Source: a virus (taxonomy: Duplodnaviria; Caudoviricetes). From it: a stretch of 64,000 bases of DNA. The stretch spans positions 1 through 64,000 of IMG/VR virus record IMGVR_UViG_3300026270_000004, one strand, 5' to 3'. Below are positions 1 to 55,108 of this stretch, piece after piece. The position numbers and the translations under genes were made by a program. Positions within the stretch are counted from its first letter, which is position 1. Each line of letters opens with the position of its first letter. The notes beneath the pieces were generated by a model. That model saw only the letters and a list, made by a program, of their open reading frames with translations, was not told where the DNA came from and made no database searches.

Positions 1-395
1 TGCTCAAGAATCTGAAGACCATCGTCTTGATTCTTTGCCATGATTGCCAATTCAAAATTCAAATTATATGGTATTGGCATAAAACTTTTAAACTCTTTAC
101 CATCAGCTTGTGTATTCCTGATGTATTGAGTAGGAGATACCTTACGAGTTGCATCGTAATTAAACCCTTGTATCTCAAAGGATATCCTAGGAAGGGTGAT
201 CTGAGTAGTAGTCTTATTAAGACCTACTTGATTTAACCTTTGTAAGAATTTCTGACGAGGACCATATGCCAGAGGTACTTTCATCACCTCTGTCTTCCCC
301 GAAGCCACACGACGCAATTCAATATTATTGAACAGTGTACCAAATCCGACTACTGTCTTCTTGATAATTTCGTGATATGAATACGTGCCTAACAT
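1..395 (-). CDS. gp15: Tail sheath stabilizer / tail completion protein gp15 (partial, continues past the window start)
   Basis: Not in the ORF track. Manual translation from the ATG at 395 (TAATG overlap with the gp14 stop) gives MLGTYSYHEIIKKTVVGFGTLFNNIELRR...KVPLAYGPRQKFL...TLPRISFEI...YDATRK...PIPYNLNFEL...DDGLQILEQ, which are typical T4-like gp15 motifs. Synteny gp13-gp14-gp15 agrees. Confidence 0.92.
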   Translation of the reverse strand, partial: MLGTYSYHEIIKKTVVGFGTLFNNIELRRVASGKTEVMKVPLAYGPRQKFLQRLNQVGLNKTTTQITLPRISFEIQGFNYDATRKVSPTQYIRNTQADGKEFKSFMPIPYNLNFELAIMAKNQDDGLQILE

Positions 396-1270
396 TAGAT
401 ACTACTTCCTTTATTTCCAAACTCACCAAAGGGGTTAGTCTCGGTGAAATCAACAATTGCATCTGCCTGAGTTTCAACAGCCCAGTTAGATTGAGACGCA
501 TCATTAGTATTATTTAGTGTATTATATGTAGCACTTGTCCACGCAGCACTAGATGTGTTACCTGTAAGTGTCTCAGGTATACTAAAGATACCAGACCTAT
601 TATACACCACCAACTGACGTGTGGCACTATTCCATGACTTAACTGTAGCAGTTACATTAGAGTTACCACCTGTAACAATCTCCTCAGCAGCGAAGTCTCC
701 ACTACCACCCTCTGCAACGTTAATACTTATTGCATTGGCATAGTTGACCTCAATTGCATCAACCTCTGTGATTCCTGTATCGATGTCCTCGTCGCTGTAC
801 TGGAAGAGCTCACAGCGTAGTCCCCACGTATAGATTTTACCCAACGTGAAAAATGGTACTTCATATTCGACAAACTGGATCTCAAAGATCTTATTTGCCA
901 TAGGGAAGTATACGAGATCGCCTTCATTTGGTCTACCCTCCACGATTAGTGTTGCATTATCATCAACTGCCTCAGTGAAACGAGTCCTTGATATAACAAA
1001 GGTAACTTGATCTGCTATCTGAACACCAAACTTGGTGAACATGTCACCATCTCCTCTGAATCCTGAGTTGTCTTCGATAAAAGCTTCTATTTCATACGCA
1101 CCCTCAAACTTAGACATTGTGTCTTCCCCGAAGACAGTATCCTCTTTGACTAGCGTCCTAGGAATGTAGTATACATTCTTACCGAACATCTTAATCTGCT
1201 CATTAACAAGACTCTGTGTTAGGTCTTGCTCTCCTGTAGTGCCTTGAGAGAAATAAGTGTTGGTAGCCAT
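395..1270 (-). CDS. gp14: Neck protein gp14
   Basis: N-terminal EQDL..SLVNEQIKMFG..VYYIPR, FTKFG and RPNEGDLVYFP...FEIQFVE motifs, plus C-terminal DFTETNPFGE. Located after gp13. Confidence 0.93.
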   Translation of the reverse strand: MATNTYFSQGTTGEQDLTQSLVNEQIKMFGKNVYYIPRTLVKEDTVFGEDTMSKFEGAYEIEAFIEDNSGFRGDGDMFTKFGVQIADQVTFVISRTRFTEAVDDNATLIVEGRPNEGDLVYFPMANKIFEIQFVEYEVPFFTLGKIYTWGLRCELFQYSDEDIDTGITEVDAIEVNYANAISINVAEGGSGDFAAEEIVTGGNSNVTATVKSWNSATRQLVVYNRSGIFSIPETLTGNTSSAAWTSATYNTLNNTNDASQSNWAVETQADAIVDFTETNPFGEFGNKGSSI

Positions 1271-22713: not shown

Positions 22714-22720
22714 TATTTAG
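22714..22720 (-). promoter_or_regulatory. Late promoter variant CTAAATA
   Basis: tatttag on the + strand about 20 nt upstream of the gp9-like start. The same variant occurs at 24321 and 55544. Confidence 0.5.
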
Positions 22721-24309
22721 GTGCCATCGTAAGTTTGTAATGTAGAGTCGAGAGTAGATGAGGTGCTATCGAATCTATTATTTGTGCTTCCACCGTCTCC
22801 TTGACCAGCAACTGTCAATGTTACTGCGTTAGAATCTAGTGGTGAGTTACCTGCTGCTACAGGTGCACCCACAGGTCCAGCGATCCTACAACGGAATTTG
22901 TAACCAGTCATATATGAGAGTGCAGTAACTGAGTATGTGTCAGTTGTTGCACCAGTTATAGCAGCGAATGCGAATCCACCATCAGTAGATCTATACCACT
23001 GATATGCCACAGGTCCGTCTTCTGGTAATACCTCTTTCTGAACTGTGAATGTAGCAGTCTGACCAGCATTCACTGTTGCATTCTGTGGTTGTAAGGTAAA
23101 TGTTAGGGTTGGTACCACTCCACCGCCACCAGCACCACCGCCACCAGCAGGAGGAGCCTCAACAGTGAACGTGGTGTCTATAGTTTCTCTAGTCTTTAAT
23201 CCAATAATGAATGGAAACTTAGTAAGATCTGTGTTAGTTTCATCTACTGTCAGGAAATATGCATATGTGCCATCCTGATACTCAGGTGTAATAGCAAATC
23301 TACCATTATGAAGGTCTAGATCACCAGTCCCTTCGACATATTCATAGTCCTCCATAAGAGTACCAGCTGGAGGATTATCACTTGTGTTACCATAATCAGG
23401 TCTTCCTGCTGCTTCTGTGTCTTTTACAGCATAACCTGTCCTCATTGTCCTAGTACCACTCAAATTATCGAATGGTACGTCATATCCATAAGGTCCATAG
23501 ATGGGAAATCCATCAAATGCTATACCAATTATCTTAGAATGACCGTCTGGGTGACGAATATTGTCTCCATTATACTGAGTACCACCATAATAATCGTTAT
23601 ATGATGCCATAGATGACCCTGCTTTCCAACAATCTAGGAAATGTGGGTCATGATAGTGGTAAATTCCACTCTGTTCTGGGTGTCCACCACAATTATCCTC
23701 TCCAGAGTTAACAAAAGTCAGATCACCAGCAGCAACCCAACTAAAACCTGATGGTGGATTGAGTCCAGCACCAGCAGAAGGGTTAAAAATAGCAACTCCA
23801 TTACCAGAAATGCCAATTTGACCTAGAGGAGTGTCACCTCTTCCATTTCTTTGGTCAAAATACTCCATTGTACCGCTAACAGGAGTAATTGCTTGGTCTG
23901 CTACAATGAAATCTAGTGTAGTATCAGTAGATAACCAACATTCACCATCAATTGAAGTAAATGTTGTGCTTCTAAAGATGAATTTTTGCTTTAATCCATC
24001 ACTAAAAACAACCATTATCTCATCACTATCCCTAATGTTAGGGGTTGGACCAGTAAAAAGAGTTAAGTCGTTTGCTGAGATTGTTGCTCTTCTAACAAAT
24101 CCGTCATGCGTATATCCATTATTATCAAATGTGCGAGCAATTCCAAATGTTCCTCCACGGTATAGGAAATCATGATCCCAGTCCTTCTCCTGAATAGTAT
24201 TAGGGTTATTATCGTTAGGAAACGCACCAGGAACCACAGGAGCAGGGAGGGCATCCGATGCTACTGTGATTATATTGGTTGCGTTATTATAGGAAGCGGT
24301 TGCTGCCAT
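22717..24309 (-). CDS. YHYH-domain protein with C-terminal Ig-like domain (530 aa)
   Basis: GIYHYHDP, HSKIIGIAFDGFPIYGPYG and GDLDLHNGR...GTYAYF motifs. The C-terminal QPQNATVNAGQTATFTV...YQWYRS...YKFRC is Ig-like. Confidence 0.85.
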   Translation of the reverse strand: MAATASYNNATNIITVASDALPAPVVPGAFPNDNNPNTIQEKDWDHDFLYRGGTFGIARTFDNNGYTHDGFVRRATISANDLTLFTGPTPNIRDSDEIMVVFSDGLKQKFIFRSTTFTSIDGECWLSTDTTLDFIVADQAITPVSGTMEYFDQRNGRGDTPLGQIGISGNGVAIFNPSAGAGLNPPSGFSWVAAGDLTFVNSGEDNCGGHPEQSGIYHYHDPHFLDCWKAGSSMASYNDYYGGTQYNGDNIRHPDGHSKIIGIAFDGFPIYGPYGYDVPFDNLSGTRTMRTGYAVKDTEAAGRPDYGNTSDNPPAGTLMEDYEYVEGTGDLDLHNGRFAITPEYQDGTYAYFLTVDETNTDLTKFPFIIGLKTRETIDTTFTVEAPPAGGGGAGGGGVVPTLTFTLQPQNATVNAGQTATFTVQKEVLPEDGPVAYQWYRSTDGGFAFAAITGATTDTYSVTALSYMTGYKFRCRIAGPVGAPVAAGNSPLDSNAVTLTVAGQGDGGSTNNRFDSTSSTLDSTLQTYDGT

Positions 24310-27300: not shown

Positions 27301-30300
27301 TTGAAGTCATACAATACACTCTTAGTATATTCACGAACTCTTGCAAGACAGAATAGGAGATGAGTCCTTGTTACATCCTGATATGCAATGAAGTTACCTT
27401 CACCATCAAACCAGTCTTGTGTCATTCTGAATGCACCAGCATTACCCTCAGTAACTAAGTCATATCTTATTGCTTTAACACAATCATTAGCAAAGTCAAT
27501 AGTTAAGTTAGTATTTGGATAGTTGATCTGAGTCTCAGCGAATGCTCTACCAGCAATTGCTTGCTTATTGAAGAGAATCATATTAGAAATTCTCTTACTG
27601 TTATTGGTTCCATTACCGAGTGCATCGGTAAACAATTCCATCAATGTATCAAGTGCTGATGTTACGTTATAGCAAGTACCTGACTGGAAGTCAGCATTGC
27701 TATTGTATGGGAATGTCTTGGTTACAGTAGACAAGAAATTAGTCTGGACATTTGCTGCCTTATCGATTGTCTCGATAAAGATATCAGCTAATGTGTTAAT
27801 AGCAGATGCAGTTTCTTGACATGTCTGATTCCATGAACCAGCATTACCTTGACCACCATTTACAGTGTCATAAGTAACAGTCTTATCTCTGATTACAACG
27901 TCAGGAGTATACTTGACGGGCCAAACGATTGGTAGTGTGTAAGATCTACCAGCAACATTATTAGGATTGCTAATAGCATCTGATACTAGTGCCATTAGAG
28001 TACCAATTTCACTCTCTACACCAGAACCTTCGTTACCTGTATAATCCTCTGAGACTCTACGTGCACGATAGTAATCTAAATCTGTCCTCAATGGATATGC
28101 ATAAGACAATACAGATTGGACAGGTAAGATCTTACCGTCAGCATAATCTGTCACACGAGGATATGTGTGGTTAGTAGCATTCTGGTCTTGACTACATGTG
28201 AATGTTAATCCATTAGTGTCAATCGTGATAGCATCATCTGTGCGTAATGAGTGATTAGCAACAGTCAATGTTAGTTGACCTGTAGTAGGCTCATAGTATG
28301 CATCTGTTGGTGTTAATGTTGTGCCATCGTTAGTATTAGTAATACAGTTAGATGCAGCAGATACGAAGTTATGCTTATAGTTACCACCCTGTATAATACA
28401 TCCTTTGTTTGCACTTACGAATGTATGCTGATATGTCTTACCAGCTGGTGATACACCTACGTTAATTCTTATCTTACCATCTTGTATTCTAATTCCTTTT
28501 TCAATACATGATTTGAATACATGATTTCCTAGGAATGTTGATGGGACACCTTTAAGTACTTGGACATCAAATTGAGTTGTAGTTACATTAGATACTGCCA
28601 ACCATTCATTACTTGCATGATCTGTAGGTCTTGGATATAGGTGAGTAGATCCATAAGCATCTAGATCACAATCAAATCCTAAAGCATAATCTTGGATGTA
28701 AATGTAATCATTTGCTTTCCATATACCATTAGTCTTAGCAGATACAAATGAGTGTTGATAATTACCACCACCTATAACAGCACCAGGTAATGCACTGACA
28801 AATGTATGATCGTATAGATCAGCAGTAGCAGCGATATTTACATCAACTGTAATCTTACCACTCTGTCTGTGTAAGGTGTTATTCTTAAAGTATTCAAATG
28901 TATGAGTGTGGTTACCACCAGCAGTGATAGCATTATTTGTAGCAGAAGCAAATCTGTGTGTATGGTTACCAGCAACAGTAGATCCTACATTAACAGTAAT
29001 TGTAGAATTCTTCTTCTCTAATCCATCAGTAACAGCACTTACGAATGTGTGTGCGTAATCACCATTACCTCTAATTGTTCCTCTGATAATTGCACCAGTT
29101 TCAATTCTCTCAATTTGATGAGTTGTAGTGTTAGAAGAAACACCAACATTAACTGTATATGTGTTTGCATCTACAACAGTAAGAGTTAACCAATCACCAG
29201 ATGCAGGGTCTTGTGCTCTAGGATAAGCATGCTCAGTTGCAAAACTATCTTCCTGACACTTGAATACAAAACTCTCATTAACTATCTGAATCTTGTCACC
29301 ATTTGAGAATGGGTGAGCACTGTGAGTAATTGTTAATACACCTGTTCCTGGGACATAAGATGCTGTTGATGGAGTGAATGCATTTTCAGATCTTACAAAT
29401 TGGTGAAGTGTTGTGTTACTTGATTTACCAACATGGACTGTGATTGTATCAGCAGTAGCAGCAAGAATAGGTACTGAAGTATTATAGAATGGGTCAGTAG
29501 ATCTTGGATAAGCATGCTCACTACCGAAGCTGTCAGCATTACACTTGAATACTAGTGACTCTTCCTCAATGTAAACTGCTTCATGTGCAAACTTAAGACC
29601 GTTAGTAACAGCACTTACGAATGTATGAGGTGAAGTAACAGACTGAGGAGCAGATGCTAATACCATTACATCGAATGTATCTTCAGTGATGTTGTATACC
29701 TCTAACCACCTATCACTTGGGTAATCAGTAGCACGTGGGTATGTATGGTTATCAGTAGGATTATCAGCATTAGCAATACCAACGTTAACTGTAATTGTAG
29801 TAGCAGTTGGATTCAACACTGCGAGTGCTGTGCCAGATGCAGGGTCAGTAGCACGTGGATATGGATGGTTACTTCCATTATTATCAGCATCACAAGTGAA
29901 GGTAACACCACCATTAGCAATGGTAACTGTATCAGCAGTTGTTAAACTATGTGATCCAATTTCCAATACCAACTCACCTGTATTAGGATTATAAGTTGTG
30001 CCAGCAGCAGCTGTGTATGTTGTAGTGCCATCGTTAATAGCATTGTTAGTGCCACTTACGAAACTGTGAGTACCAGTAGATGCAGAGCAGTTGAAGGTTA
30101 TAGAGTTATCGTCAAACTTAACTCTGTCTCCAATCTTCATTCCATGAGAAGGAACTGTTGCTGTTAATACACCAGTTGTAGGATTATAAGCAGCATCAGT
30201 AATTGTAGTTGCACCACCACCCTTGTAGTTGTGTGGTCCAATGGTGAGCACCATATCACCTGTAGTAGGTTCAAATGTTGCATCAGAAACTAGGTAGTTA

Positions 30301-33300
30301 GCACGAGGTGTTGATCCTACATTAACATCAAATGTGTTACCAGAAACATTAGAAACTTCTAACCATTTCTCTGAAGCATAATCTGTAGGTCTTGGATAAG
30401 AATGATTAGTTGCATTGTTATCCATTGCACAGGTCATTACTAGAGAATGATCAGCGATTCTAATATGGTCACCATTAGCAAATGGGTTGTTAGCAACTGT
30501 TAGTTGTAAGTTACCAGTAGTAGGATTGTATGTAGCACCAGTTGCTGAGTACTTAGCATGACCAACTGCCTTAATTTCGATAGCATGATCATGTGCTCTA
30601 TCTCTCTTCGCCTTAAGTCCGTTAGAAGCGAATGATTGGAAACTGTGTGTGAATGATCCACCAGATCTGATTGATCCTCTCTTAATAGCACCAGTCTTTG
30701 CTCTCTTAAATGTATGAGTAGATGTGTTAGTAGAAGGAATAGTATCTAATACTTGGACTCTAAATGTGTCAGTAGTTACGTTAGAAATTGTTAACCACTT
30801 ACCACTTGCAGGATCACTAGATCTTGGATAGTTGTGCTCAGTAGCATGATCATCCTTACCACATGTGAATACTAATGAGTTATCAGCAAACATGATTTGC
30901 TCACCATCACTCATTCCATGATTAGCAACAGTAACAGTCATAAGACCAGTACCACCACTATATGAAATTGCAGTTGGTGTTACACCGACGGCAGGTTTGA
31001 ATACGTGAGTTGTAGTGTTAGAAGATACACCAACGTTAACAGTAATGGTACTATCATCAACAGCAGTTACAGCAACAGCATCTTGATATGCTGGGTCGTC
31101 ACCAGATGCACCACTCTCTCCATTTGCACGAGGATAGAAGTGATCAGTCTGATAGTTATCTAATGCACAAGTAAAGCAGAATGCTTTATGGTTAATGTAT
31201 ACACTGTGAGCAGTTGTAATACCGTGGTCAGGACCAACAGTGATTACCATTACACCTGTATTAGGATTGTAATCTACATTCTGAGGATCGTAACTTACAA
31301 ACTCAGATTTACCAACGAAGATCTTGTATGTGTTAGCATCGATATACTCGATAGGCTTCCACTTACCACTAATAGGATCAGTAGATCTAGGATAAGTCTT
31401 GTTAGTGGTACTTCCGTCCATTGTGCAACGCAAGGTTATTGCATTGTCATCAATCTTAACAAGAGATCCTTCATCTAATCCATGAGCATTAGAAGTAATT
31501 GTTAAGTAACCTGTTACTCCATCAAATACAGCATTTGTAGGAGTGAAGTTATCGATTGTAGTCCTTGGATATGCATGAGTAGATCCATAGTTATCCTGAC
31601 TACATTCCATTGTGATACCACCGTCAGCAATCTGAATGCTCTGACCAACCTTAAGTGGGTGAGTGCCAATCTCAATCTCTAAATGTCCTGTTGTTGGCTC
31701 GTAAGATGCATCAACAGGTGTGTATTGGACAGCAGCAGTTGTGCCTACTTCAACATCAAAACCATCTGTAGATACGTTAGAAATTTGTACCCACTTACCA
31801 CTGATAGGATCTGTGCCTCTAGGATATGCATGACTGCTAGAATCATTATCCATATCACATGACATGGAGAATGCATAATCTTCAATCTTAATGTAGTCTC
31901 CATTTGAGAATCCATGCTTGGATACTGTTAGTGATAAAACACCAGTTGATGGTACGTAACTAGCAGCAGTTGGAGTATGTCTTGTAACACCGTCATCAAT
32001 AATTCTTAGAGACTCATTGTATGCAGGATCAGATGTTCTAGGATATGCATGGTTAGTAGAATTACCATCCTTAGAGCAAGTGAATGTTAAAGCATTCTCA
32101 GGAAGTTTGATACTGTCATTACCCTTCATTAGAGTAGCAACAGTTATACTTTGTGGTCTAGCAGATACGAATGTATGAGTTGTAGTATTAGAAGAAGGTA
32201 TGTTGAATAAGACTTGAATATCAAATGTATCCTTAGTTACATTCTTAACTATCATCCACTCATCACTATATGGATCTGATGCTCTAGGATATGCATGATT
32301 AGTTTGATTACTATCCTGTGTGCATGTGAATGTTACAAATCCATCATCCACCATAATTCTGCTGCCATTCTTAAGACCATGATTAGCAACAGTCAATGTC
32401 ATAATACCTGTAGAAGGAGTATATGCAGCATTGGTTGGTGTTAGTTTTGCAGGAGCAACAAACTTATGTTTGTAGTCACCACCAGAAGCAACAGTTGCTC
32501 TGGTAATAGCACCAGTAAGAGCACTTACAAATGTGTGAAGAGTCTGGTTAGTTGATGGGACGTTATCAAGTACCATGACATCGAATGTGTCATCAGTTAC
32601 GTTCTTAATAGGAATCCACTTATTGTTTACTGGGTCACTAGATCTAGGATAAGGATGGAGAGTTTGGTTAACATCTTGTAAGCATGTGAATACAAGTGAG
32701 TTAGTGCCAATCTTGATACTCTCATCTTCCATGAATCCATGATTAGGAATTGTGATGGTCATCCAACCTGTTGCTGGATTGTAATTAACAGCAGTTGGAG
32801 TATATGATTCACCAAGTGCATGGAAGGTGTGGTTATATGCACCACCTGCCTTCACACACATACCATTACCACTTACGAAACTGTGAGCAGTTGGATGAGT
32901 AATCTGACCATTACCAATATCTAATGTGATAGTACCAGTCTGTCTGTGTAATGAGTTATTTTCACAAGATACAAATGTATGATCGTAAACATCATTAACA
33001 CCAGATTTACCTACATGGACAGTGAAACTTGTGTTACTTGCATTAGAGATAGGTAACCACTTACCGAATGTAGGATCTGTCCTTCTAGGATATGTGTGGT
33101 TAGTAGCATTCTGATCCTTAGAGCAAGTGAATGTGATTGCATCCTCATCAAACATTACAAAGTCATTTGCTTTCCAAACAGCATCAGTTGCCACAGATTG
33201 AAGCACATGAGTTGTAGTGTTAGAGATAGCACCTTCACCGAAGAAGTTACCAACGTTAACATCAAATGAGTTACTACCAACATTAAATGCCTTCAACCAC

Positions 33301-36300
33301 TTACCACTAGCAGGGTCAGATGATCTTGGATATGCATGATCTGATGATTGACTATCTTCATCACAACGGAATGTAAATGCACCATCAGCAAGAAGAAGCA
33401 TATCACCATTCTTAACAGGATGACCATTAAGAGTGATTCTCATGGTACCTGTAGAAGGAGTGAATGTAGCACCACTAGGTGTCATCGTGCTATGGTTACC
33501 AAAGCTATTGCTCATGGTAACTTCCATAGTACCAGCAGTAGGATTGTAAGTTATATTTGTAGGACTATGTGAAGTCTTACCTACTTCATGGATAGGAATA
33601 TTTGTATCGAAGAAGTAATCCTTCTTATGAGTAATGCAGTTTGCATCAGCACTTACGAAAGCATGAATTGTAGTATTTGTTGAAGGTACTACATCTAATA
33701 CTTCTACGCTAAATGTATGAGAAGTGACATCATGAATCATTATCCACTTACCACTTACAGGGTCAGTAGATCTTGGATATGTGTGGTCGGTAGCATTGCC
33801 ATCCTTAGCACATGTGAATGTCAAGGAGTCGTCAGCAATCTTAATGTAAGTATGTGGAATGAATCCATGATTAGGAACAGTAAACTTAAGATGTCCTAAA
33901 TTAGGATCGTAAGATACATCAGTTGGTGTATGAGTTGTACCAGGTCTAGGATATGAATGGTTAGATGAATTTCCATCAGCACCACAAGTAAATGTTACTG
34001 CACCTTCGTCTAGTCTGATAGAATCTCCAGCATGACGTAGAGCACCAACAGTAGAAGTTGAGTAAGTATGATCGTAAACACCACCACTTACAATCTGTGC
34101 TCTAGTAATGCAGTTACCAACAGCACTAGAGAATAGATGAGTTGTTGTGTTACTCTGAGGAATAACTGTGTTAACTGTAACATCGAATGTGTCTTCAGTA
34201 ACACCATGTACTTTCAACCATGATCCAGAAGCAGGATCACCAGGACGAGGATAAGCATGAGTAGTCTGATGATCATCTAAAGCACATGTTAATACTATGC
34301 CATAATCATCGATCTTAATCATGTCACCATTTTCAAATTTATGACCAACGATTGTTATTGTCATAACACCTGTAGTAGGATTATGATTAACGTTTGTTGG
34401 AGTATATCCTGGGTTAGGAATGTAGGTATGGACACTCTGATCTGAGATCGCACCATCACCAACGTTAAGTGTTATAGTGCCATCTCTCTTAGTAATTCCA
34501 TTTGCAACAGCAGACGCAAATACGTGAGTTGTTGTGTTAGTGGAAGGAGCATATGATAATACTTGTACGTCAAATGTATTAGCAGTTAAATTAGATCCTA
34601 ATACAGGTTGCCATCTATTTGCATATGGGTCAGTTGCACGAGGATATGCATGATCACTACCTTGTCCATCTTGATCACAACGGAAGACTAATGAATTAAT
34701 AGCAAACTTAACATCATCACCTTCTTGCAATCCATGAGGATTAGCAGTAGTGATGGTCATTATACCTGTAGTTGGATTATATGATGTACCACCAGTAGCA
34801 GTCATTGGTGTGCCATCGTATAGCACTTCTATTGATGTGTTATAGAATGGGTCATTACCATTAGCACGTGGATAATAGTGGTAACTATTATTAGCATCTA
34901 AGAAACATGTGAAGTTAATAGACTCAGTTGCTAGTCTTACACTTTGTCCTCTTCTTAGATTGTGATCACCAATAGTAGCAACTAACTGACCGTTAGCAGG
35001 AGTAAATGTAGCAGCAGAAATTGTAAATGGTATTGTAGGTGTTCTACCAACATATAGATCGAATGAATCCTTAGAAACGTTTCTAACATCCATCCACTTA
35101 CCACTCATCGGATCTGTTGATCTAGGATAAGCATGAGTTGTTGCATGGTTATCTTGACTGCATGTGAATGTTACTCCACCGTCAGCAATCTTAACGTAAT
35201 CTCCTTCAGCAAAGTTGTGGTCAGCAACGGTCAATCTCATTAAACCAGTTTCACCGTTAAATTCACCACCAGTAATATTATGAATACTTTCTCTACGGAA
35301 GAAATGCTTTCTATCAAGTGTCATACTTAATAGACCATCAGCAGGAGTAAATGCAGCACCAGTAAGACCGTATGTTACTTGAGGTGTTGTACCAACATTA
35401 ACAGTTATAGAATCTGAAGTAACAGCAGTAATTGCTATTGGCTCATTATGTACTGGATCTTTAGGTCTTGGATATGAGTGCTTAGTAGCATGGTCATCCA
35501 TATCACAAGTAAATGTCAAGCTTCCTTGTGACAGTTTGATATGTGTTCCAACTGCTAAACTATGTGATCCAATTGTTAATGTAAGAGCACCAGTAGTGGA
35601 GTTGAATGTAGCAGCAGAAGGTGTAAATCCTTTGATTGGAGATGGACCAACATTAACAGTAAACCAACCATCTTCCTGATTAGACTCAATAACATCTAAC
35701 CACTTACGTGTAGCAGGATCAGAAGATCTAGGATACACATGATCACTATAATGGTTATCCATTGAGCAAGTAAATGTCATGGAATTTTCCATGATCTGAA
35801 TCTGCTCACCAGGGGCAATCTTATGTCCAGATACTGTTAGTTTTAAAATACCAGTATATGCATCATATTCAGCATAAGTTGCAACATGGGTAGAAGCACC
35901 AACGAAACGATGCTGACCGATCTCCATTTCTAAATGACCAGTATTCTGATCGTAAGTAGCATTAGAAACGTCATACTCAACTTTAGGAGTAGATCCAACG
36001 TTAACTGTAAATAGATCCTTACTCTCAACAGATTCAACTAATAACCACTGATCACCAGCTGGATCTTTTGGTCTTGGATATCCATGCTTAGTAGCATTAT
36101 TATCTTGAGCACATGTGAATATTAAAGATCCATTTTCAATTCTTATTTGATCACCAGTCTTAAATCCGTGGTCATCAATCTTAATTCTTAATACTCCACT
36201 ATCAGGATCGTATGATGAATCTTGTGCAGTATGAACTGAATGCGATGACATTCCATGATCAGGAATAGTCAATCTCATAATACCTGTATCAGGATTGTAA

Positions 36301-39300
36301 GTAGCATCAGTTGCCTTATGATCAGTACCGTATGTTTCTAATACTTCAATAGTAGTATTACCAGCAGGATCACCAGATCTAGGATAAGAATGAGTTGTAG
36401 CATTATTATCTTGATCACAAGTGAAGTTAATGGAGTTGGTCTTCAATCTAAGGAATGTACCCTCTGTATGATTGTGTGATCCAACATTCATTATTAAATC
36501 ACCAGTACTGGAATCATATGCAGCAGATGTGCAGTCATACTTGATAGTAGGAGCAGGACCAACATTAACTGTAAATGTATTAATGTTAGCAGGCTCACCA
36601 GCAGCAATACTGTCTCCACCTTGGATACCATATCCAGAGTAATCTGTTCCAGCAAATTGTCCAGGAGCAGAGTAAAGACCTGTATATCCACCACCTTGAG
36701 TTTCAGCAGATCCAACAGATACACCGTCAATCCATAACTCAACTCTACCTTTACCAGCACCTTGGTTACCACCAACGTTGATCTGCCATACTAATTCATG
36801 ATCTCCATCATCGAAGTAAGATGATAGGTTGCTGATCTGTAGATCAAGCATTGCTAATCCACTCTCAGTATGACTAGCACCACCAGAATATGAGTTAGCA
36901 CCATTACCAGCACGAAGTCTTAAATATGTGCCATTATCTCTAATACCTAACCATGAACCAGCACCAGTTCCACCTGCTTCCCAGATGGTGCCATCAATAG
37001 GACTAGATGCTAATTTAGCAATACAACGGAATACAGCATCTTCAGTAGTTACTATACCAGTGCCACTATCAGTTGTAGAAATCTTATCTTCACCAACCTT
37101 GAAGGATCTAGTAATAATATTATTATCTTCACCTTCTATTGGACCATCTTCATCAGAATTGAATAGTGAAGTTACAGGTCTTGGGACAGCATTATAGAAT
37201 CTTTGATCTACTTCCCAACCAGCATTATTACTGATTACCTGACCCTTCATTGCACGGATTGCAAATTCCTGTGCTTTATTAATAATCCAAAGAGATTCAG
37301 TAGGAGCGTTAGTAACGTGATCTAAGTTACCATTATAATTGGTATAAAACTCAGATGCATACTGAAGCATATTAGTACCACCATACTTGAGGTTGAATAT
37401 CATCGCTCTCAATATGTCAGTAACGTCATGCACACAGTTAACAGGACCGCCAGGAATTGCTAAGTTAGGGAATTGGACTAAACCAGCAGCAACTGCTTGC
37501 TCTGCAATGTATCTAATGTTTCCATCGATAGCATCACCACACTCAGCAAATAACTTATCTTTAGGATTCTGATTGTAACTTTCAACATTACTTGCTCCAT
37601 CACCTTGCTCCATATCATAATCTTTACCAAATGCATTACGCATTGTGCAAGTTAAGATATCTCTTAGAAGCTTAACTACAGTAATAGATGCTTCCCATTC
37701 AGTCTCAATATGCTTAAGTGAATTATTTTCTGTCTCAACATATAATGCAGCAGCATCCCATACTTTCTCATTACAGTCGAAACGTATGTCATGAACCATT
37801 GCTTCGATCATGTCTAAGACATCATCTTCACAGTTAACATGACCATCAGGAATCATTAGGTTTCCATACTTAGAAAGGTCATTCATTATGCTGACACATT
37901 CTTTAGCGATGACTGCTCTGTTATTCCAGATCATATCAGCAGCATCAAGATACCTATCATTGTTTGCTCTATTCTGGTTGTTAGGATATCCTTCAGTATC
38001 CTTAACGATTTCAGAATCTCTATATGCTGCCTTAGAAGTCCAGATAGGAGTGTAATATTCTTCATGTGCCCATGCAGCAGCATTTAGTGCATTACCATCG
38101 TTATCTAATAGTGCACCAGCAACTTCACCAGGAGACATTAGAAGGTTATTAATTGCCTTCATAGCAAGCATCTTAGTATAATCAAATGCATCATTCAATG
38201 CAGCAAGCTCATGCTCAACATGGAGGATATTCTTTTGATCATCAAGATACTTGTCAATAACAGCTTGAGTCTGGAATGTACCACCAGTAACTAAGTCAGC
38301 AATTACACCAGGAATAATGAAGTCCTTGATATCTCTCTCACAATATGGTTGACCATATCCAGGCATTTCAAGGAAGTCAAAGACAACACCATCAATAGTT
38401 TTCTGATACTTGTCTTGAATATATCCAGCAACTTCTTCTGCAATGTAATCTCTATTCTTCCAAAGTTGGAATCCACCTTCTCTGAATCTCTGATCATTAG
38501 GTGCAATAACCTTAAGAAGATCAGTCATCAAAGTATCAACTTCATCTTGAACTGCCTGTGAAGCAGGAGATGCAAAGTTGTTAGGTATTCTATATCTTGT
38601 AGTATATGTGCCTGTTAGAGTTGCACTAGTTGTAGTGATTATTTCCTTAGTAAGTTTTGCTACTTCATTCCAAACATATAGAGATTGTAGAATCTCTTCT
38701 CCAATGAAGTCTAACTTACCACCAACTGTTAGATAAGTCCTAGCAGTATAGATTGTATGATAGTTACCACCTTCTCTAAGGTCTTTAATTAGAGCACCAA
38801 GGATATAGTCCTTAGTATCTCTGATACATGTATCAGTACCACCATAACTGTTTTGAGCAGGGACATCACCACGAATGTTGAAGTCACTAAATGCTGCCTT
38901 CATTCGACCCACTGCTTCTTCAGCAATGTAAGCACCGTTAAGGTCGATGATATCAGCACAGTCTCTATATTCCTGACGACCTAAATCAACGTCCTCAGCA
39001 ATAATTGCTAATCCTTCATAATCGATTCTCTTAGAAGTTGTAGCAGATGATCTCTGACCACTATACTTAGCGTATACTTCCTCAGTAGACAATATAAATG
39101 GTGCTTCACCATCTAGACCAAATACGATATTAGGATTATTATAATCTACCTGAGTAGGTGCAGTGAATCCAGTTGTATAAGCACCGATACCCTTCCAGAT
39201 GCAAACGTTATCAACGTGTCCAGACCAATGAGTAGCACCGTTAAAGTCTTGACCAACGTAACATGCAGCATAGAGGTAATCGTTAGTATCAGCAACGTTT

Positions 39301-42300
39301 CCACCAAGTTGAGCACCGTTAATATACAACTGAGTAATTCCGTTGTTTCTGCTAACTGCAATATGATGCCATGTACCAGTTGTAGTAACTACGTTACCAC
39401 TGGTTAATAATTGAGTAGTGCCATTATAAACCTTAATTGCTTGTGCATCTTGGACAATTCTTAAACCTTGAGCAGCACTTAAACGACGGAAGTCAAATAG
39501 TGTTTGCAGGGTTGTATTTGTAGCAGAACGGAACCAACCTTCAATTGTGAAGTCTCCAGTTCCGAAAGCATAGTCATAAGAAGCAGGACTGCTTAATGCA
39601 CCATTAGTAGGAATATAGATGGATTTAGTACCACTTAATTCTGCTTTCTTAACAATTACACTTTGAGTGCAATTAGTGAAAGTTAGAGTAGAGTTAGTGA
39701 TATATTCACCTGCTTGGAATACTCCAGTCACAGGACCAGCAAACAACCACTTAAGACCAGAATTAACTCCAATTGCTTGGAATAGTGCTCCAGAAGTCAT
39801 ACCCTTGATCTGGTCACCCATTACGAATAAACCAGTTGACTTATCCTTATAACCGATCTTAGTTGTCCTGATAGTTTCATTTGCTTCAAATGTACCATCA
39901 GTAACAGCAAGAGCATTAACATTGGTTAAATTACCTGCTGTCATTGCAGTTGTAGCAATCGCTCTCAGAGTGTCAATATAAGACTTAACATTGGCACAAT
40001 TGTTGATATCTTGGTTATTACCAGATGCATAGTTAAGATCGTAGTTATTAGCAGGAGCAACACCACCAGTGTAAGTAGTAGGATCATTAAGGTTATATCC
40101 CTGTCCAGAGAGATCCTTCCAATACATTAGGTTATTAATCGCTCTATGCATGAATGTGCCAGCAGCAGTAAATGCATGAACTGCTTCTGCCTCTTCTCCA
40201 ACAATACCGTTAGTTAGAGGTGTGCCATCTTCATTAAAGAATTTTTTAGTAAATTCAACTGTATTGAAGTTACCACCTTGTCCAACATCATTAGCAATAG
40301 CATCAATCATGTATCCAAGGTCTCTTCTGCACTTCTCTTGGTGTGGTGAGTATGTGCCACCTGCTTCGACAGGAAGATCATTTAGACTTGCATTATTCAA
40401 TGCTTCATCGATAAACTGATGTAGAGTTGTAATTGCTGCTTGAACGTCTGAGCAATTGTCAGAATCAGTATTATCAGCATTAGATCCAGCAGTACCGTAA
40501 GGATTGCCAGGTGAAGGGTCAGCAGTGATTGTAAGGTCTTGATATGCAGTCCAAGAGTCACCAGAGTTAACAGCACTGATTGTTCCTGAATATCCGTTTG
40601 CAATCGCAACATTCATGCGATCTTTTGCTTTTTCGTAAGCATACTTGGTTTCTGCAACCTCAGCATTAACATAAGTGAATGTTCCGTTTTCGTCGAAGTA
40701 TTGTTGGACAAACTTACGAGCATAGCGGTTTCCACCAGCATAGATGTCTATAGAAATTGCATCGATGAAATATTCAAGATCTCGCTTACATTTCGCATCT
40801 GAAGGAATTGAAGAAGAAGGATATTGCGTTTTCATGTCATCAAACGCCATTCCAGCAATCATTGCCTTATTCTTCTGAATCATCCTGTAAGCGTCTTTAA
40901 ATCGACTCCAGTTGTTAGTAATAACGTCGGAGGGGAAATAGTAGTCTGGATAGTCAATTGCAATTGCTGCTTCTGCAAAATCGATGATTTCTTGCTTATT
41001 ATTAGAAATATTACGTCTTGCATCAAGGAATCTGTTTGCAGCGATTCCGTGGAAGGTAGAAATTGGATTTCCGTAAAATGCCTTCTTATTACGAATAACC
41101 ATTCCATCAGTAAGAGTACCACCACTTAATTGACTATAAGTGACCTCAGTAGTCCTAACTTGCTCAAAATTCAAGAAGTCAGCATTAATTCTATTCTCAG
41201 AGTTATAGAGCTCAGTAGGAGTGATAGAAGATTGTGAAATATCATCTAAGATGACATTGGGGTTAGTTAGTGAAACTAAACGCTCAAATAGTAATCCAAA
41301 GAATGTTGTTCCCTTGTTAATGATTAATTCATCAACAACTTCACCATTAATAGGATCTTGATAAGGAGCAATGTATGTAATCTGGCCTGCAATTCCTGAT
41401 GAGGCAGAATAAATGTACTCGTTAAGTTTAAAGTCAAAGATACCAGTCTCAAACCTAGGAGTACCTGAAGTCTTACTTACAACCACTCTATCAGTTACAT
41501 TACCCTGATTATCTACGTTAGTCTCTTCAATGTATGCAGTGTCACCATCAAGGTTGGTAAGTGATTCACCAAACTCAAATATGGTAGGAGTATTAAGAGG
41601 GGTAACTGACTCGATCAATGCAGCGAATAATTCACCTCTCTTGATTTGCTCATTAAGTTGGAATGTGCCACTTACGTTAATAACGTCAATGTGGTTAGTA
41701 CCTGAATCAATAACAGTACCAATGACATCTGATAGAGCACCTTGGACTTGTTGTCCTAATGTTGGGAAGATACCATAGTTAGATCCACCACCATCATTGT
41801 AAAGTGCAATTCTGTAAATGGTAGTAGGAGTAACAGATAGAGTCCTATAGTTAACCTTAGATGGTGGTTTAGGTGGCTCAGCAAATACTAAGTTACCACC
41901 AACGATCTGATAAGAAGTACCAGGTGACTGAATGATACCATTCAGAGTTATCATCAACTGGTCTTGCTTAACGATTACAGTTTCACCCTCAACAGTAATT
42001 GGGAATGACTTCTTAATACCATCAAACTGATCTTGGACGTTATCCATCTTCTTAACAATAGAAGTTAAGATTTCCTCAGAAGATGTTAGACGCTTCTTAC
42101 GGAAGAGAACCTCAGTATTGTTGTAGTCAGTATAGATTGGTTGAGCAGCACCGAATGATGTAATCTGGTTTACATTACTATAGTTGTTAATATTAACCTT
42201 CTTAGTAAACTCAGTACCAATACGTCTTCCAGATACGTCCTTACCACCAGTCAGTTGTAACTGACCAAACATATTGAAACCAGCAGGGTGGTTATTTTCT

Positions 42301-53011: not shown

Positions 53012-55108
53012 TTAGAAACAGGATTCGCTAACTGGATACTCGAAAGTATCACTTGGGTAATCGATAATATTTATCCCACTTGTGTCACCGTAATTATAAC
53101 CATTAAAGTTATTAGGATCGAAGGTGGGGATTGACACATCGTTGATTGTGTAGTCAATTGGATTGACTTGGGGGTTAAAGATCGTAGGATCTACTCCTGG
53201 TGGGATTGCAATTGATCCACCAGCAGGTAATACTTGAATTGGCAGTCTAGTAGTGCCATCTGGGGTGCCCTGAATCGCTACAGGACCAACACAGACTTGA
53301 CCACTGCCATAATCGACGCTGCCTACTGAAGGATTGAGGGTTAACTCAGTCTCATCTCTCACGGTAACCAGAATTAGGTTTCCACGACCATCATCTCTTA
53401 TGTTGACTGGTACCAAGACTTGATTAGCGGTACTTGTGCTAATTCCAGGTGTTGAAACCTGTGCAGACGTAGATCCGTCGCTCAAAGTAAGATTTACAAG
53501 ATCTTCTGTATATCCAGTGGCATAAAATGTCCCAGATTTGACTACAGAGAAAGAAGGCTTACATTTTCCACCTTCTCCATCGCCATCATCGTCTGGAGTG
53601 CCAGCTAACCCAGTTGGATCATAAAGTGGGTTACCAAAATCTAAACATTGTGTGAAAACTTGCCCAAAAGCAAATTTATCAAGATTTTGACCCAAAGTCA
53701 TTTGAGTTACGTTACCAGAAATGGCATTATCGGCATTATCGATCATTGCACCGAATTTAGATCCGTCTAAACGGTTTCCAAACCTATTTGTGGCACCATT
53801 TTTGTTAAATGCGTCAATTCCTTGTAAAATCTTAGTTCCAAGTTGAGATCCAGTCAAACTAGTGTCATTTCCGTTGTAATAAACGTAAGATTTGGGAATA
53901 ACATAGAAAATAGTTGGGTCAATGATGACTGGCTCGATAGATGCGACAGAATACTTCGCTAAATCCTTCTTAATCTTTGCTTTTGTCGTTTCATTGAGCT
54001 TAGTTCCTGTTTTTGGTCTAATTGCAACGTAAACTTTTCCATAAATCGGTGGATTTAACTTCTCACCACCAAATGCAGTCACTGATGCTGCTTGAGGGTA
54101 GATTTCAGAGACAATATGCTCAAAATCATTCTCTGTAACTGCCCTATTCTGGGTTGCATACGCTCTAGGTGCTCTAAACTTGACTGAAAGTGATGTTTCA
54201 CGATCTTCACCGTCTTGAGCAGCGTCTTTAGTGGTCAAACTAATGGAATTTGGGTTAACTACACGATTATCGGAGTCAATTACGTTACCAATGAAGTTAA
54301 AACCCTTCGCACCGTTTGCTTCTACCCCATCTGTAGAGATATATGTGATAGTAATGTATTCTCCATCGATTAATTTACGTCCAATTGACCCATCTCCGAA
54401 AACAAGACGGTATCTCATGTCATCAGTCTCTTCCAAATAGTAAATTCTGGAAGTTCCGTCAGAATTTGTGACATTTGCTGCTGGACTATAGGTATCTGTC
54501 TCTGAAGATTGCTCAGTTGGAGAAATATCTACTGTCAAAAGACCTGTATCTACCTTTTCATCAGGAATGACGTACTCTTGACGCTTTGTATAGTCAACTG
54601 TATAGTTATAACTGAGTAAATTACCCTGATATACCATTACATTATCAAAAGTTGCTAATCCTGTGCCACTATCTACAGGCACTTGGATGTCTTGAGTCAA
54701 TGCAAAGGTATAAGAATCAAAATCATTGTCTGCAACAAAGACATCACCCTTCTTTAGGGTGGCAAATTCAGGATAACTAGTCCCACTTAGTCCAACACTA
54801 GTCTGTGCAAGGAGTTTCACGCATGCTCTAGGTGCTTTAATTGACCTAGGAGTGTAATTTAACTGCTTTGCGATCCTTACAATGTTGTCTCTGACCGTTG
54901 CAGTCTCTAAAAATGCTTCGTTTAACGCCATGTTAGCGTTAAATGCTGTGTAATATGTGTTATACGCAAGAATATCGATCAAATATGATGCAGAACTTCC
55001 CTCAAAATCGTAATCAGTAAACTCTTTTCTAGTTCTGAGGTACGATCTAATCGATTCTTTGATCTCAAAGAAGTCTAACGACGTTAATTGCGATGGTATG
55101 GCTGCCAT
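53012..55108 (-). CDS. gp6: Baseplate wedge subunit gp6
   Basis: LDFFEIKESIRSYL...FTDYDFEGS...LIDILAYNTYY.AFNANM..NE.FL.TAT.RDN, FGDG.IG and APRAYATQNRAVT..D motifs. Confidence 0.95.
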   Translation of the reverse strand: MAAIPSQLTSLDFFEIKESIRSYLRTRKEFTDYDFEGSSASYLIDILAYNTYYTAFNANMALNEAFLETATVRDNIVRIAKQLNYTPRSIKAPRACVKLLAQTSVGLSGTSYPEFATLKKGDVFVADNDFDSYTFALTQDIQVPVDSGTGLATFDNVMVYQGNLLSYNYTVDYTKRQEYVIPDEKVDTGLLTVDISPTEQSSETDTYSPAANVTNSDGTSRIYYLEETDDMRYRLVFGDGSIGRKLIDGEYITITYISTDGVEANGAKGFNFIGNVIDSDNRVVNPNSISLTTKDAAQDGEDRETSLSVKFRAPRAYATQNRAVTENDFEHIVSEIYPQAASVTAFGGEKLNPPIYGKVYVAIRPKTGTKLNETTKAKIKKDLAKYSVASIEPVIIDPTIFYVIPKSYVYYNGNDTSLTGSQLGTKILQGIDAFNKNGATNRFGNRLDGSKFGAMIDNADNAISGNVTQMTLGQNLDKFAFGQVFTQCLDFGNPLYDPTGLAGTPDDDGDGEGGKCKPSFSVVKSGTFYATGYTEDLVNLTLSDGSTSAQVSTPGISTSTANQVLVPVNIRDDGRGNLILVTVRDETELTLNPSVGSVDYGSGQVCVGPVAIQGTPDGTTRLPIQVLPAGGSIAIPPGVDPTIFNPQVNPIDYTINDVSIPTFDPNNFNGYNYGDTSGINIIDYPSDTFEYPVSESCF

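Follow-up and report, generated by a model that had tools for sequence, protein, structure and literature searches.

Evidence for recursive insertion of domains within domains in a giant baseplate protein of a T4-like cyanophage

Insertion of one protein domain into another is common and deep recursion of such insertions is very rare, and the question raised by the locus described here is whether a single phage polypeptide has been built by placing domains inside the loops of other domains many times over. The locus lies in a stretch of 64,000 nucleotides from a member of the Caudoviricetes (positions 1 to 64,000 of the IMG/VR virus record IMGVR_UViG_3300026270_000004), the whole of which is referred to below as the window, and belongs to a giant gene encoding 9,560 amino acid residues (aa) in a single uninterrupted open reading frame (ORF; window 24324-53006, minus strand) that takes the place of gp7 among the baseplate genes of a T4-like marine cyanophage. 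Residue numbers refer to this protein, the codon of residue i having the top window coordinate 53006-3(i-1). An earlier note made from the letters alone had proposed that three helical domains with a phycobiliprotein-like fold (P4, P5 and P6), a LamG-like domain and a family of small modules (D0 and its guests) are nested in the order P4 > P5 > P6 > LamG > D0 > ... > D10, and every motif quoted in it was located where it had been placed, on the minus strand and within the one uninterrupted ORF. The analysis indicates that window 27609-38495 is very probably one continuous stretch of domains inside loops of domains, in which each host closes after its guest has ended, and the proposed order was borne out by orthologs lacking the insert, by orthologs carrying LamG alone, by a predicted model of the ortholog at locus L039 and by predicted docking of the two flanks of the insert. 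The segments, in the order in which they are translated, are as follows.

Window 37968-38495, minus strand: P4 body (aa 4838-5013), with a profile match over aa 4840-4963 (profile positions 2-113).
Window 37566-37967, minus strand: P5 body (aa 5014-5147), within P4 and ahead of the P4 terminal helix, with a profile match over aa 5018-5144 (positions 2-125).
Window 37194-37565, minus strand: P6 body (aa 5148-5271), within P5, with a profile match over aa 5153-5260 (positions 3-109).
Window 36585-37193, minus strand: linker and LamG-like jelly roll, as far as ...IAAGEPAN (aa 5272-5474), missing in S-WAM1-type orthologs and present alone and contiguous in about 30 loci.
Window 36558-36584, minus strand: strand c3 of D0 (INTFTVNVG, aa 5475-5483), the sole piece of D0 before the tree of modules, conserved in all tree-bearing loci.
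Window 28392-36557, minus strand: modules D1-D26 (aa 5484-8205), inside D0 according to the token parse.
Window 28110-28391, minus strand: remainder of D0, comprising elements d, a, b, YPR and c2 (aa 8206-8299), a circular permutation of the order seen in the remaining modules.
Window 28053-28109, minus strand: return to LamG (LSYAYPLR) and the hairpin TDLDYY-RARRV common to LamG and P6 (aa 8300-8318).
Window 27966-28052, minus strand: tail t6 with helix h6 (SGVESEIGTLMALVSDAI), closing P6; profile piece aa 8306-8347 (positions 136-166).
Window 27735-27965, minus strand: tail t5 with VVIRDKTVTYD and helix h5 (TCQETASAINTL...), closing P5; profile piece aa 8348-8424 (positions 126-166).
Window 27609-27734, minus strand: tail t4 with helix h4 (TCYNVTSALDTL...), closing P4; profile piece aa 8425-8466 (positions 127-166).

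The helical domains were delineated using a profile of 166 states, which was built from the intact domain P1 (aa 4034-4205) and iterated over four orthologous giant proteins. P4, P5 and P6 each stop about 45 positions before the C-terminal end of this profile, their matches ending at positions 113, 125 and 109 of 166, and exactly three C-terminal pieces are found downstream, 3,035 residues away, matching only the missing end of the profile: t6 with 8.6 bits (expectation value (E) 0.0018), t5 with 20.7 bits (E 3.5e-7) and t4 with 31.7 bits (E 1.4e-10). Both observations agree with the earlier note, which had described three domains without a final helix and three orphan terminal helices beyond the tree, and the splicing that it had suggested, carried out in silico by joining each body with a tail, yielded a single full-length match (positions 1-166) each time. 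The order of the nest can be read from a short aYRDxtixxD element that precedes the last helix in each P domain. The P4 body, which is without its terminal helix, already holds its own element (AAYRDSEIVKD) ahead of the start of P5, that of P5 (VVIRDKTVTYD) appears only after h6, and past h5 there is a lone helix; this placement supports the nested order P4 > P5 > P6.

In the databases, the nearest relatives of the giant gene were found directly after gp6 in three T4-like cyanophages (Kyanoviridae), S-WAM1 (gp159), S-SZBM1 (gp068) and P-TIM40 (gp099); they are orthologs sharing 45-61% identity with the window protein over the common parts and carrying the same P2 > P1 and P4 > P5 > P6 nests. 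The S-WAM1 protein (6,737 aa) aligns to residues 7-3801, 3888-5270 and 8302-9557 of the window protein, and the 3,035 residues of the LamG-like domain and the tree are absent at the P6 site from both S-WAM1 and S-SZBM1. In these two phages P6 is contiguous and complete (profile positions 2-170) and is followed by exactly two orphan C-terminal pieces, P4 and P5 being truncated. Tail t6 is orthologous to the contiguous P6 C-terminus of S-WAM1 and is therefore tied to P6 by orthology. P-TIM40, unlike the window protein, has a few modules within a further P domain and at a P6 loop other than the present one. The earlier note had named P2 as an intact reference, which did not hold, as P2 (window 39942-41033, minus strand; aa 3992-4355) is itself split by P1 into a hairpin (aa 3992-4028, profile 2-38) and a remainder (aa 4212-4355, profile 26-170), P1 inside it being complete.

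An alignment-based search of IMG/VR provided 80 loci with 44-96% identity, in which the length of the P6 loop was taken between conserved anchors; a query with the single sequence had returned only close relatives, all tree-bearing, and the alignment query was needed to reach those without a tree. The contents of the P6 loop across the 80 loci are 0-32 residues, about 215-230 (LamG alone), about 731 (LamG and five modules), about 2,085 or 2,724-3,282, the largest inserts among relatives consisting of LamG with 24-27 modules. Orthologs without the insert comprise S-WAM1, S-SZBM1 and about 12 metagenomic contigs, P6 being contiguous and complete in all of them with exactly two orphan pieces after it, and the same ORF and architecture as in the window recur on more than 20 independent metagenomic contigs. 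One locus (L074) carries an additional complete P domain within P6, giving a four-level P nest, and three (L082, L084 and L085) carry an additional P domain that is split by 17 barrel modules, with no LamG. A second insertion hot spot of P6, the loop just before the Cys helix at profile position ~35, is used in P-TIM40 (L010, aa 5664-5981) and L055, with three modules each, in L071, with at least four, and in L054, where about 100 residues lack the YPR motif. In every architecture examined the tails equal the bodies in number and closure is last-in-first-out. In S-RIM2 and S-RIM12 these helical domains simply follow one another in tandem, indicating that the nest is specific to the present lineage.

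In a midpoint-rooted tree of the flanking sequences, the LamG-bearing loci form one clade and the loci with 24-27 modules form one subclade within the phylogeny. The tree-less loci L052 and L050/51 branch among tree-bearing ones, which points to loss or recombination. L052 and its near neighbours in this flank tree, L038 and L044, provide a clean natural contrast of presence and absence: LamG is contiguous in L052 (...GETTTAWPYAITGNLEYY), and in L038 and L044 this very junction is occupied by five modules. Neither intein motifs nor signs of removal of the insert or of an assembly artefact were found. Split profiles, orthologs with and without guests and alignments bridging the inserts all display the discontinuous hosts that define recursive insertion, and guests that are themselves hosts, closed last-in-first-out, are seen in the parse of the module tree described below and in the RD pattern of the tails.

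Structure prediction was carried out on the stretch from P4 to h4 of the LamG-only locus L039 (798 aa) using AlphaFold2 with an alignment of 26 sequences. The model had a mean predicted local distance difference test (pLDDT) score of 83.1 and a predicted template modelling (pTM) score of 0.76, with values of 80-95 for the three terminal helices (80-86 for h4). Structural alignment with VIA matched phycoerythrin beta (2vjh_B) with Z 16.4 and a root-mean-square deviation of 2.0 Å over 140 of 177 residues (model 165..747, chain 28..177); this range indicates that the P5 body and h5 form one fold, with P6 and LamG skipped. A phycobilisome core chain of the allophycocyanin type (8imi_H) was matched with Z 13.6 over model residues 268..678, corresponding to the P6 body and h6, with LamG skipped. 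The proposal that the orphan helices close P6, P5 and P4 in reverse order thus stands by structural alignment for P6-h6 and P5-h5, the pairing of P4 with h4 being made by elimination and by its profile match. From sequence and comparison, with support from prediction, the two segments flanking each guest are seen to constitute one fold.

The two flanks of the window protein itself were predicted as a complex of two chains, for each of which a separate alignment of 13 rows was used. Chain 1 (aa 4838-5487) covers the bodies of P4, P5 and P6, the N-terminal part of LamG and the c3 strand of D0, and chain 2 (aa 8206-8466) covers the remainder of D0, the return to LamG and t6, t5 and t4. The interface score ipSAE was 0.81 (0.85, 0.81 and 0.73 in the individual runs) compared with 0.00 for the best of three controls, the mark for this score being reached by 58 of 80 solved complexes and by 2 of 110 mismatched pairs, a calibration that is rough here because own alignments were used. 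Contacts agree between runs by at least 53% and the pLDDT of the partner is at least 67. All three P bodies and all three helices take part in the interface, each body through a homologous surface; residues 3-7 and 60-116 of P4 lie in it, as do residues 240-259 of chain 2 (t4). The TV of the D0 c3 strand TFTVNVG is placed in contact with L8245 in QLTLTV of the post-tree hairpin (chain 1 residues 642-643 with chain 2 residue 40, expected error 0.6 Å), and V8318 contacts L5281, which we read as a predicted two-stranded stalk. The predicted complex supports binding of the flanks without showing it, and its pass in part reflects the completion of known folds, which is the very point at issue.

The LamG-like domain has no match to any Pfam family even at E up to 10 (aa 5271-5480), and was recognised from the ortholog model, in which Foldseek gave a probability of 1.00 to laminin alpha2 LG5, perlecan LG3, neurexin LNS and CBM40 (target-normalised TM-score 0.5-0.6) and VIA gave Z 11-12 over 147-168 residues. 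Where the tree enters, the LamG unit has about 8 residues left to run. At this junction, LamG-only orthologs read GEPTA|AWAYTTSDLDYY and the window reads GEPAN[tree]LSYAYPLRTDLDYY; in wider context, VPxGEPTA runs directly into AWAYTTS and DLDYYRARR in LamG-only orthologs, compared with ...IAAGEPAN[tree]LSYAYPLRTDLDYYRARR in the window and ...GESTT[5 modules]STWAWPISGDLSYY in L038. About 30 loci carry LamG alone and contiguous, which was the check that the earlier note had proposed for orthologs lacking the tree.

The explanation that competes most directly with the insertion of the tree into LamG holds that LamG and the D0 tree are two serial guests in the same P6 loop, the tree lying at the LamG/P6 junction, which would remove one level from the nest. 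The peptides AWAYTTS and SYAYPLR are confined to LamG-bearing loci, whereas TDLD[FY][FY] also occurs in loci without LamG (as TDLDFF; NTDLDFFPYNQGGYVVTAD), so that by descent it belongs to the hairpin of P6. In such orthologs the strand is found as TDLDFF-...-YVVTAD, only about 8 LamG-specific residues (LSYAYPLR or AWAYTTS) remain after the tree, and the ortholog model shows only isolated bridges there, all of which speaks for serial guests. However, more than 30 LamG, LNS and CBM40 structures align to the ortholog model from residues ~451-459 to residues 647-658 and so include the DLDYY and RRV strands, beyond the entry point of the tree. In the flank complex, moreover, LDYY (8310-8313) is packed against two LamG strands, VFRC (5325-5328) and ITRSF (5298-5302), with an expected error of 0.4-0.6 Å, the lowest of all residue pairs. 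These alignments and this docking indicate that the modelled LamG sandwich needs the strand that follows the tree, and serial insertion is therefore considered unlikely. The statement that LamG is interrupted by the tree was accordingly upheld on the ortholog alignments, and the description of TDLDYY as the last strand of LamG was upheld in part: it is predicted to dock in the LamG sheet, and on the evidence of the relatives it would be P6's own hairpin strand by descent, shared with that sheet. That LamG is split is hence true structurally and arguable by descent, which counts to that extent against the insertion of the tree into LamG.

The modules of the tree were described by five tokens, namely a, a Y..P.TG.L.LTV hairpin; b, ending in ..F.C; y, H.YPR; c3,.F.V.VG; and d, H.F.S, each of which occurs in exactly 27 copies in aa 5460-8310. 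A first, crude d pattern gave 24 parse errors from false and missed tokens and was replaced by the corrected pattern with 27 tokens. Using a stack parser, in which each token either advances an open module or opens a new one, all 135 tokens were parsed last-in-first-out into 27 modules with a maximum depth of 11 and none left open, which reproduced the 27-module tree of the earlier note together with its numbering. A start with element a was found for 25 modules, the others being D0, which starts with c3 (aa 5478), and D25, which starts with d (aa 7647, just past the Cys of D24). Error-free parses were obtained in 0 of 20,000 shuffles, a number that refers to an earlier, noisier token set with 28 d tokens and not to the final 135-token set. 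Guests would enter each barrel at three sites (a|b, c2|c3 and c3|d), the P domain at two (position ~35 and the loop preceding its terminal helix) and LamG at one. In all 27 modules (window 28110-36584, minus strand) element b ends in a Cys, followed in most as C-x-x-D, and H-x-YPR is present (with K in one); the closing strand carries an H-x-F/Y element, by construction of the d pattern. On motif conservation, each barrel may bind a metal through its Cys and two His residues, and such a site would staple the closing strand of a split module.

The fold of the module was addressed by predicting the subtree of D8, which holds D9, D10 and D11 (aa 5905-6325), using AlphaFold2 with 17 sequences (pLDDT 83.3, pTM 0.71). 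Small six-stranded barrels (UBA1 FCCH, FAD-binding and EF-Tu domain 2; Z 5-7.4) aligned to residues 160..270, corresponding to D10, and 293..399, corresponding to D11, and more than 20 further barrel alignments of 65-80 residues span 1..421 or 2..421 of the model, joining the N-terminal part of D8 with its far-downstream closing strand.

A depth of 11 module levels requires each H-x-F-x-S element to close its own module, and the barrel nest would be shallower, with 8 levels, if the GG-x-Y-x-H-x-F-x-S elements belonged to the preceding sibling. Counting against the deeper nest, a parse with four elements, d being left out, likewise runs without error and gives a depth of 8, and the deferred d elements are mostly of a distinct type (GG-Y-H-F-S compared with S-NTT-H-F-S). 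However, the number of d elements, 27, is exactly that of the modules, and with five elements the parse reaches full closure. In the D8 model, moreover, alignments to the N-terminal part alone cover only about 60 residues, fewer than the 65-80 aligned across the whole subtree, and the matches to D11 end at 399-401. The shallower nest is improbable on these grounds, about as much so as serial insertion at the P6 loop. With 11 barrel levels the nest has about 15 levels in total; the earlier estimate was at least 15, and the depth is 12-15 depending on the assignment of two elements.

Three-dimensional domain swapping, in which the orphan helices and strands would complete neighbouring copies in the assembled baseplate, gains some plausibility from the presence of baseplate wedge proteins in several copies around a sixfold axis, from the fact that the profile leaves the tails unassigned and from the inability of the methods used to separate intra-chain from inter-chain contacts, but it is very unlikely, since P5, P6 and LamG are each completed by the same chain in the ortholog model, the linkers are short and conserved, the number of bodies matches that of tails in each architecture examined, and last-in-first-out order is predicted by insertion into the same chain and is unneeded for swapping. 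That there is no nesting at all, the stretch consisting of truncated degenerate repeats and linkers or of an assembly artefact that balances by chance, is barely credible: Pfam is blind to the LamG-like domain and the module, and repeats are common in giant phage proteins, but the architecture recurs on independent contigs, the C-terminal profile matches are significant, neither the shuffles of the earlier token set nor the flank controls (0.00) reproduce the result, and guests are cleanly present or absent at exact junctions in orthologs.

Several further points weigh against recursive insertion of domains as set out above. All of the three-dimensional evidence is prediction, the folded ortholog is only about 60% identical to the window protein, and for each match VIA reports just where the alignment begins and ends. 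The profile gives no assignment of tails to bodies, t4 being the top scorer with every body, and pairing by spliced profile score was abandoned because the scores did not discriminate; the pair P4-h4 is also without a direct structural alignment, as the best VIA alignment for each chain fell on P5, P6 or LamG. For the module, the barrel matches are middling (Z at most 7.4) and amount to a generic small-barrel likeness with no family assignment, and Foldseek returned nothing clear for the D8 subtree model, all probabilities being below 0.3. The token patterns, chiefly that of d, were tuned on the window sequence, and the parser fails on 12 orthologs, in which 1-3 tokens of each type are missed; for L038, with its five modules, the parse was made by eye. 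Finally, parent and child modules share an identity of 0.36 compared with 0.39 for other pairs, so that they are no more alike than others and the mechanism of growth is not visible in them.

No sign of recent copying from host to guest was found in the module identities. The modules are old, their pseudo-sequences sharing at most 62% identity.

The assignment of the gene to the baseplate was made from its surroundings. The giant ORF lies directly downstream, in the direction of transcription, of a gp6-like gene (window 53012-55108, Pfam Gp6-like), and a run of YHYH, gp9/10-like and gp8-like genes (Pfam) follows beyond it, a gene order matching that of S-WAM1, S-SZBM1 and P-TIM40, for whose giant proteins the records give no annotation beyond 'virion structural protein' or 'baseplate wedge initiator'. 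As for T4 gp7, the position of the ORF is next to gp6 in the baseplate wedge cluster; PF23786 (Baseplate_wedge) matched aa 695-735 with 19.7 bits, under the cut-off of 27. A YHYH domain (PF14240) is present both in the giant protein (aa 1396-1541, E 9.2e-27) and in the next gene downstream (window 22717-24309, minus strand, E 4.9e-34). Between P2 and P3 there is another LamG domain (aa 4480-4605; window 39192-39569, minus strand; Pfam Laminin_G_3, E 9.3e-17), which is distinct from the nested one. Pfam scans of the whole protein and of its pieces gave no match for the compact module.

Among the phycobiliproteins (PF00502; phycoerythrin, phycocyanin and allophycocyanin), P5 and P6 of the ortholog model superpose on phycoerythrin beta and on the phycobilisome core chain, and the globin-like fold including the C-terminal helix H was found on the predicted model by its alignment with 2vjh_B. 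Unlike phycobiliproteins, the P domains share only 14-20% identity with the family, belong to a virion structural protein, are nested or split by foreign domains and add a terminal helix motif initiated by Cys (C..V.SAI.TL). The Pfam Phycobilisome family matched P1 with 22.3 bits, compared with a gathering cut-off of 22.2, and no match was obtained for P2 or P3; in the P4-P6 stretch only the P6 portion matched, with 13.4 bits, below the cut-off. In P1 (window 40392-40907, minus strand) the Cys of AKCKRD aligns with the bilin-site Cys84 of C-phycocyanin alpha (KAKCSRD), phmmer giving a weak match (E 0.46). P4, P5 and P6 keep CERD, CEDD and CVHD at the candidate bilin-site Cys.

The ligands of LamG-type domains are carbohydrates or proteins of the cell surface. 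The nested copy shares its fold (Foldseek, VIA) with ConA-like jelly rolls of the LamG, LNS, CBM40 and pentraxin type, and differs from known LamG domains in being without a Pfam match (PF13385), in being a guest in a helical domain, in hosting an 8.5-kb tree of modules and in having one strand of its sheet supplied by the hairpin of its host domain.

The closest published analogue found is Si3 of the cyanobacterial RNA polymerase beta' subunit (RpoC2), in which eight hybrid-motif domains form a six-level nest and which a survey covering 2.7 million classified domains uses to illustrate complex nesting (PMC13114784). As in Si3, a small beta domain is repeatedly inserted into its own copies and the hosts are closed last-in-first-out. 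The present nest is far deeper than that of Si3, with 27 copies of the module in 11 levels, and unlike it is branched and continues outward through LamG and three domains with a phycobiliprotein fold. The host of Si3 is an enzyme, whereas here it is a virion baseplate protein whose relatives hold anywhere between 0 and 27 copies at one and the same loop. None of the 50 structural matches listed for the module is an RNA polymerase chain, and homology of the module to the hybrid-motif domain of Si3 (SBHM/HABAS) is not supported thereby. A search of the literature library found no description of nesting in cyanophage or other phage virion proteins.

In the architecture proposed here, P4, P5 and P6 would be nested globin-like folds, with the LamG jelly roll in P6, the permuted D0 in the LamG unit and D1-D26 in D0, giving a branched nest of 11 barrel levels and about 15 overall. 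The ends of a guest would lie side by side, so that it may plug into a surface loop and leave the fold of its host unbroken, and gain or loss of whole subtrees might leave the part that assembles into the baseplate undisturbed. Growth was most likely stepwise: every relative has the P nest, one clade has LamG, a subclade has D0 with a few barrels, and the clade of the window has 24-27 barrels. The product would be a compact branched bush of exposed LamG and barrel domains at the periphery of the baseplate, touching the host envelope, and its size and make-up would vary with host range. A broader claim, that among known proteins this is the deepest and most branched domain-in-domain nest and an instance of a general rule of plug-in growth in cyanophage baseplate proteins, is made tentatively and may well prove too wide.

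If that claim is true, about 15 levels and 31 domains of three folds are joined in one chain, and receptor-contacting subtrees added or removed at a few permissive loops would tune host range with the assembly core untouched. A branched nest of 12 to 15 levels over three folds stretches what one chain is thought able to fold, and relatives with 0, 1, 6 or about 28 guests at one loop provide a series for the study of chain folding and of the origin of insertions at the DNA level. Sequence tools that presume contiguous domains would miss such proteins or split them wrongly. Gain and loss of whole subtrees would offer a route for variation of the baseplate surface, and may bear on the host range of oceanic cyanophages.

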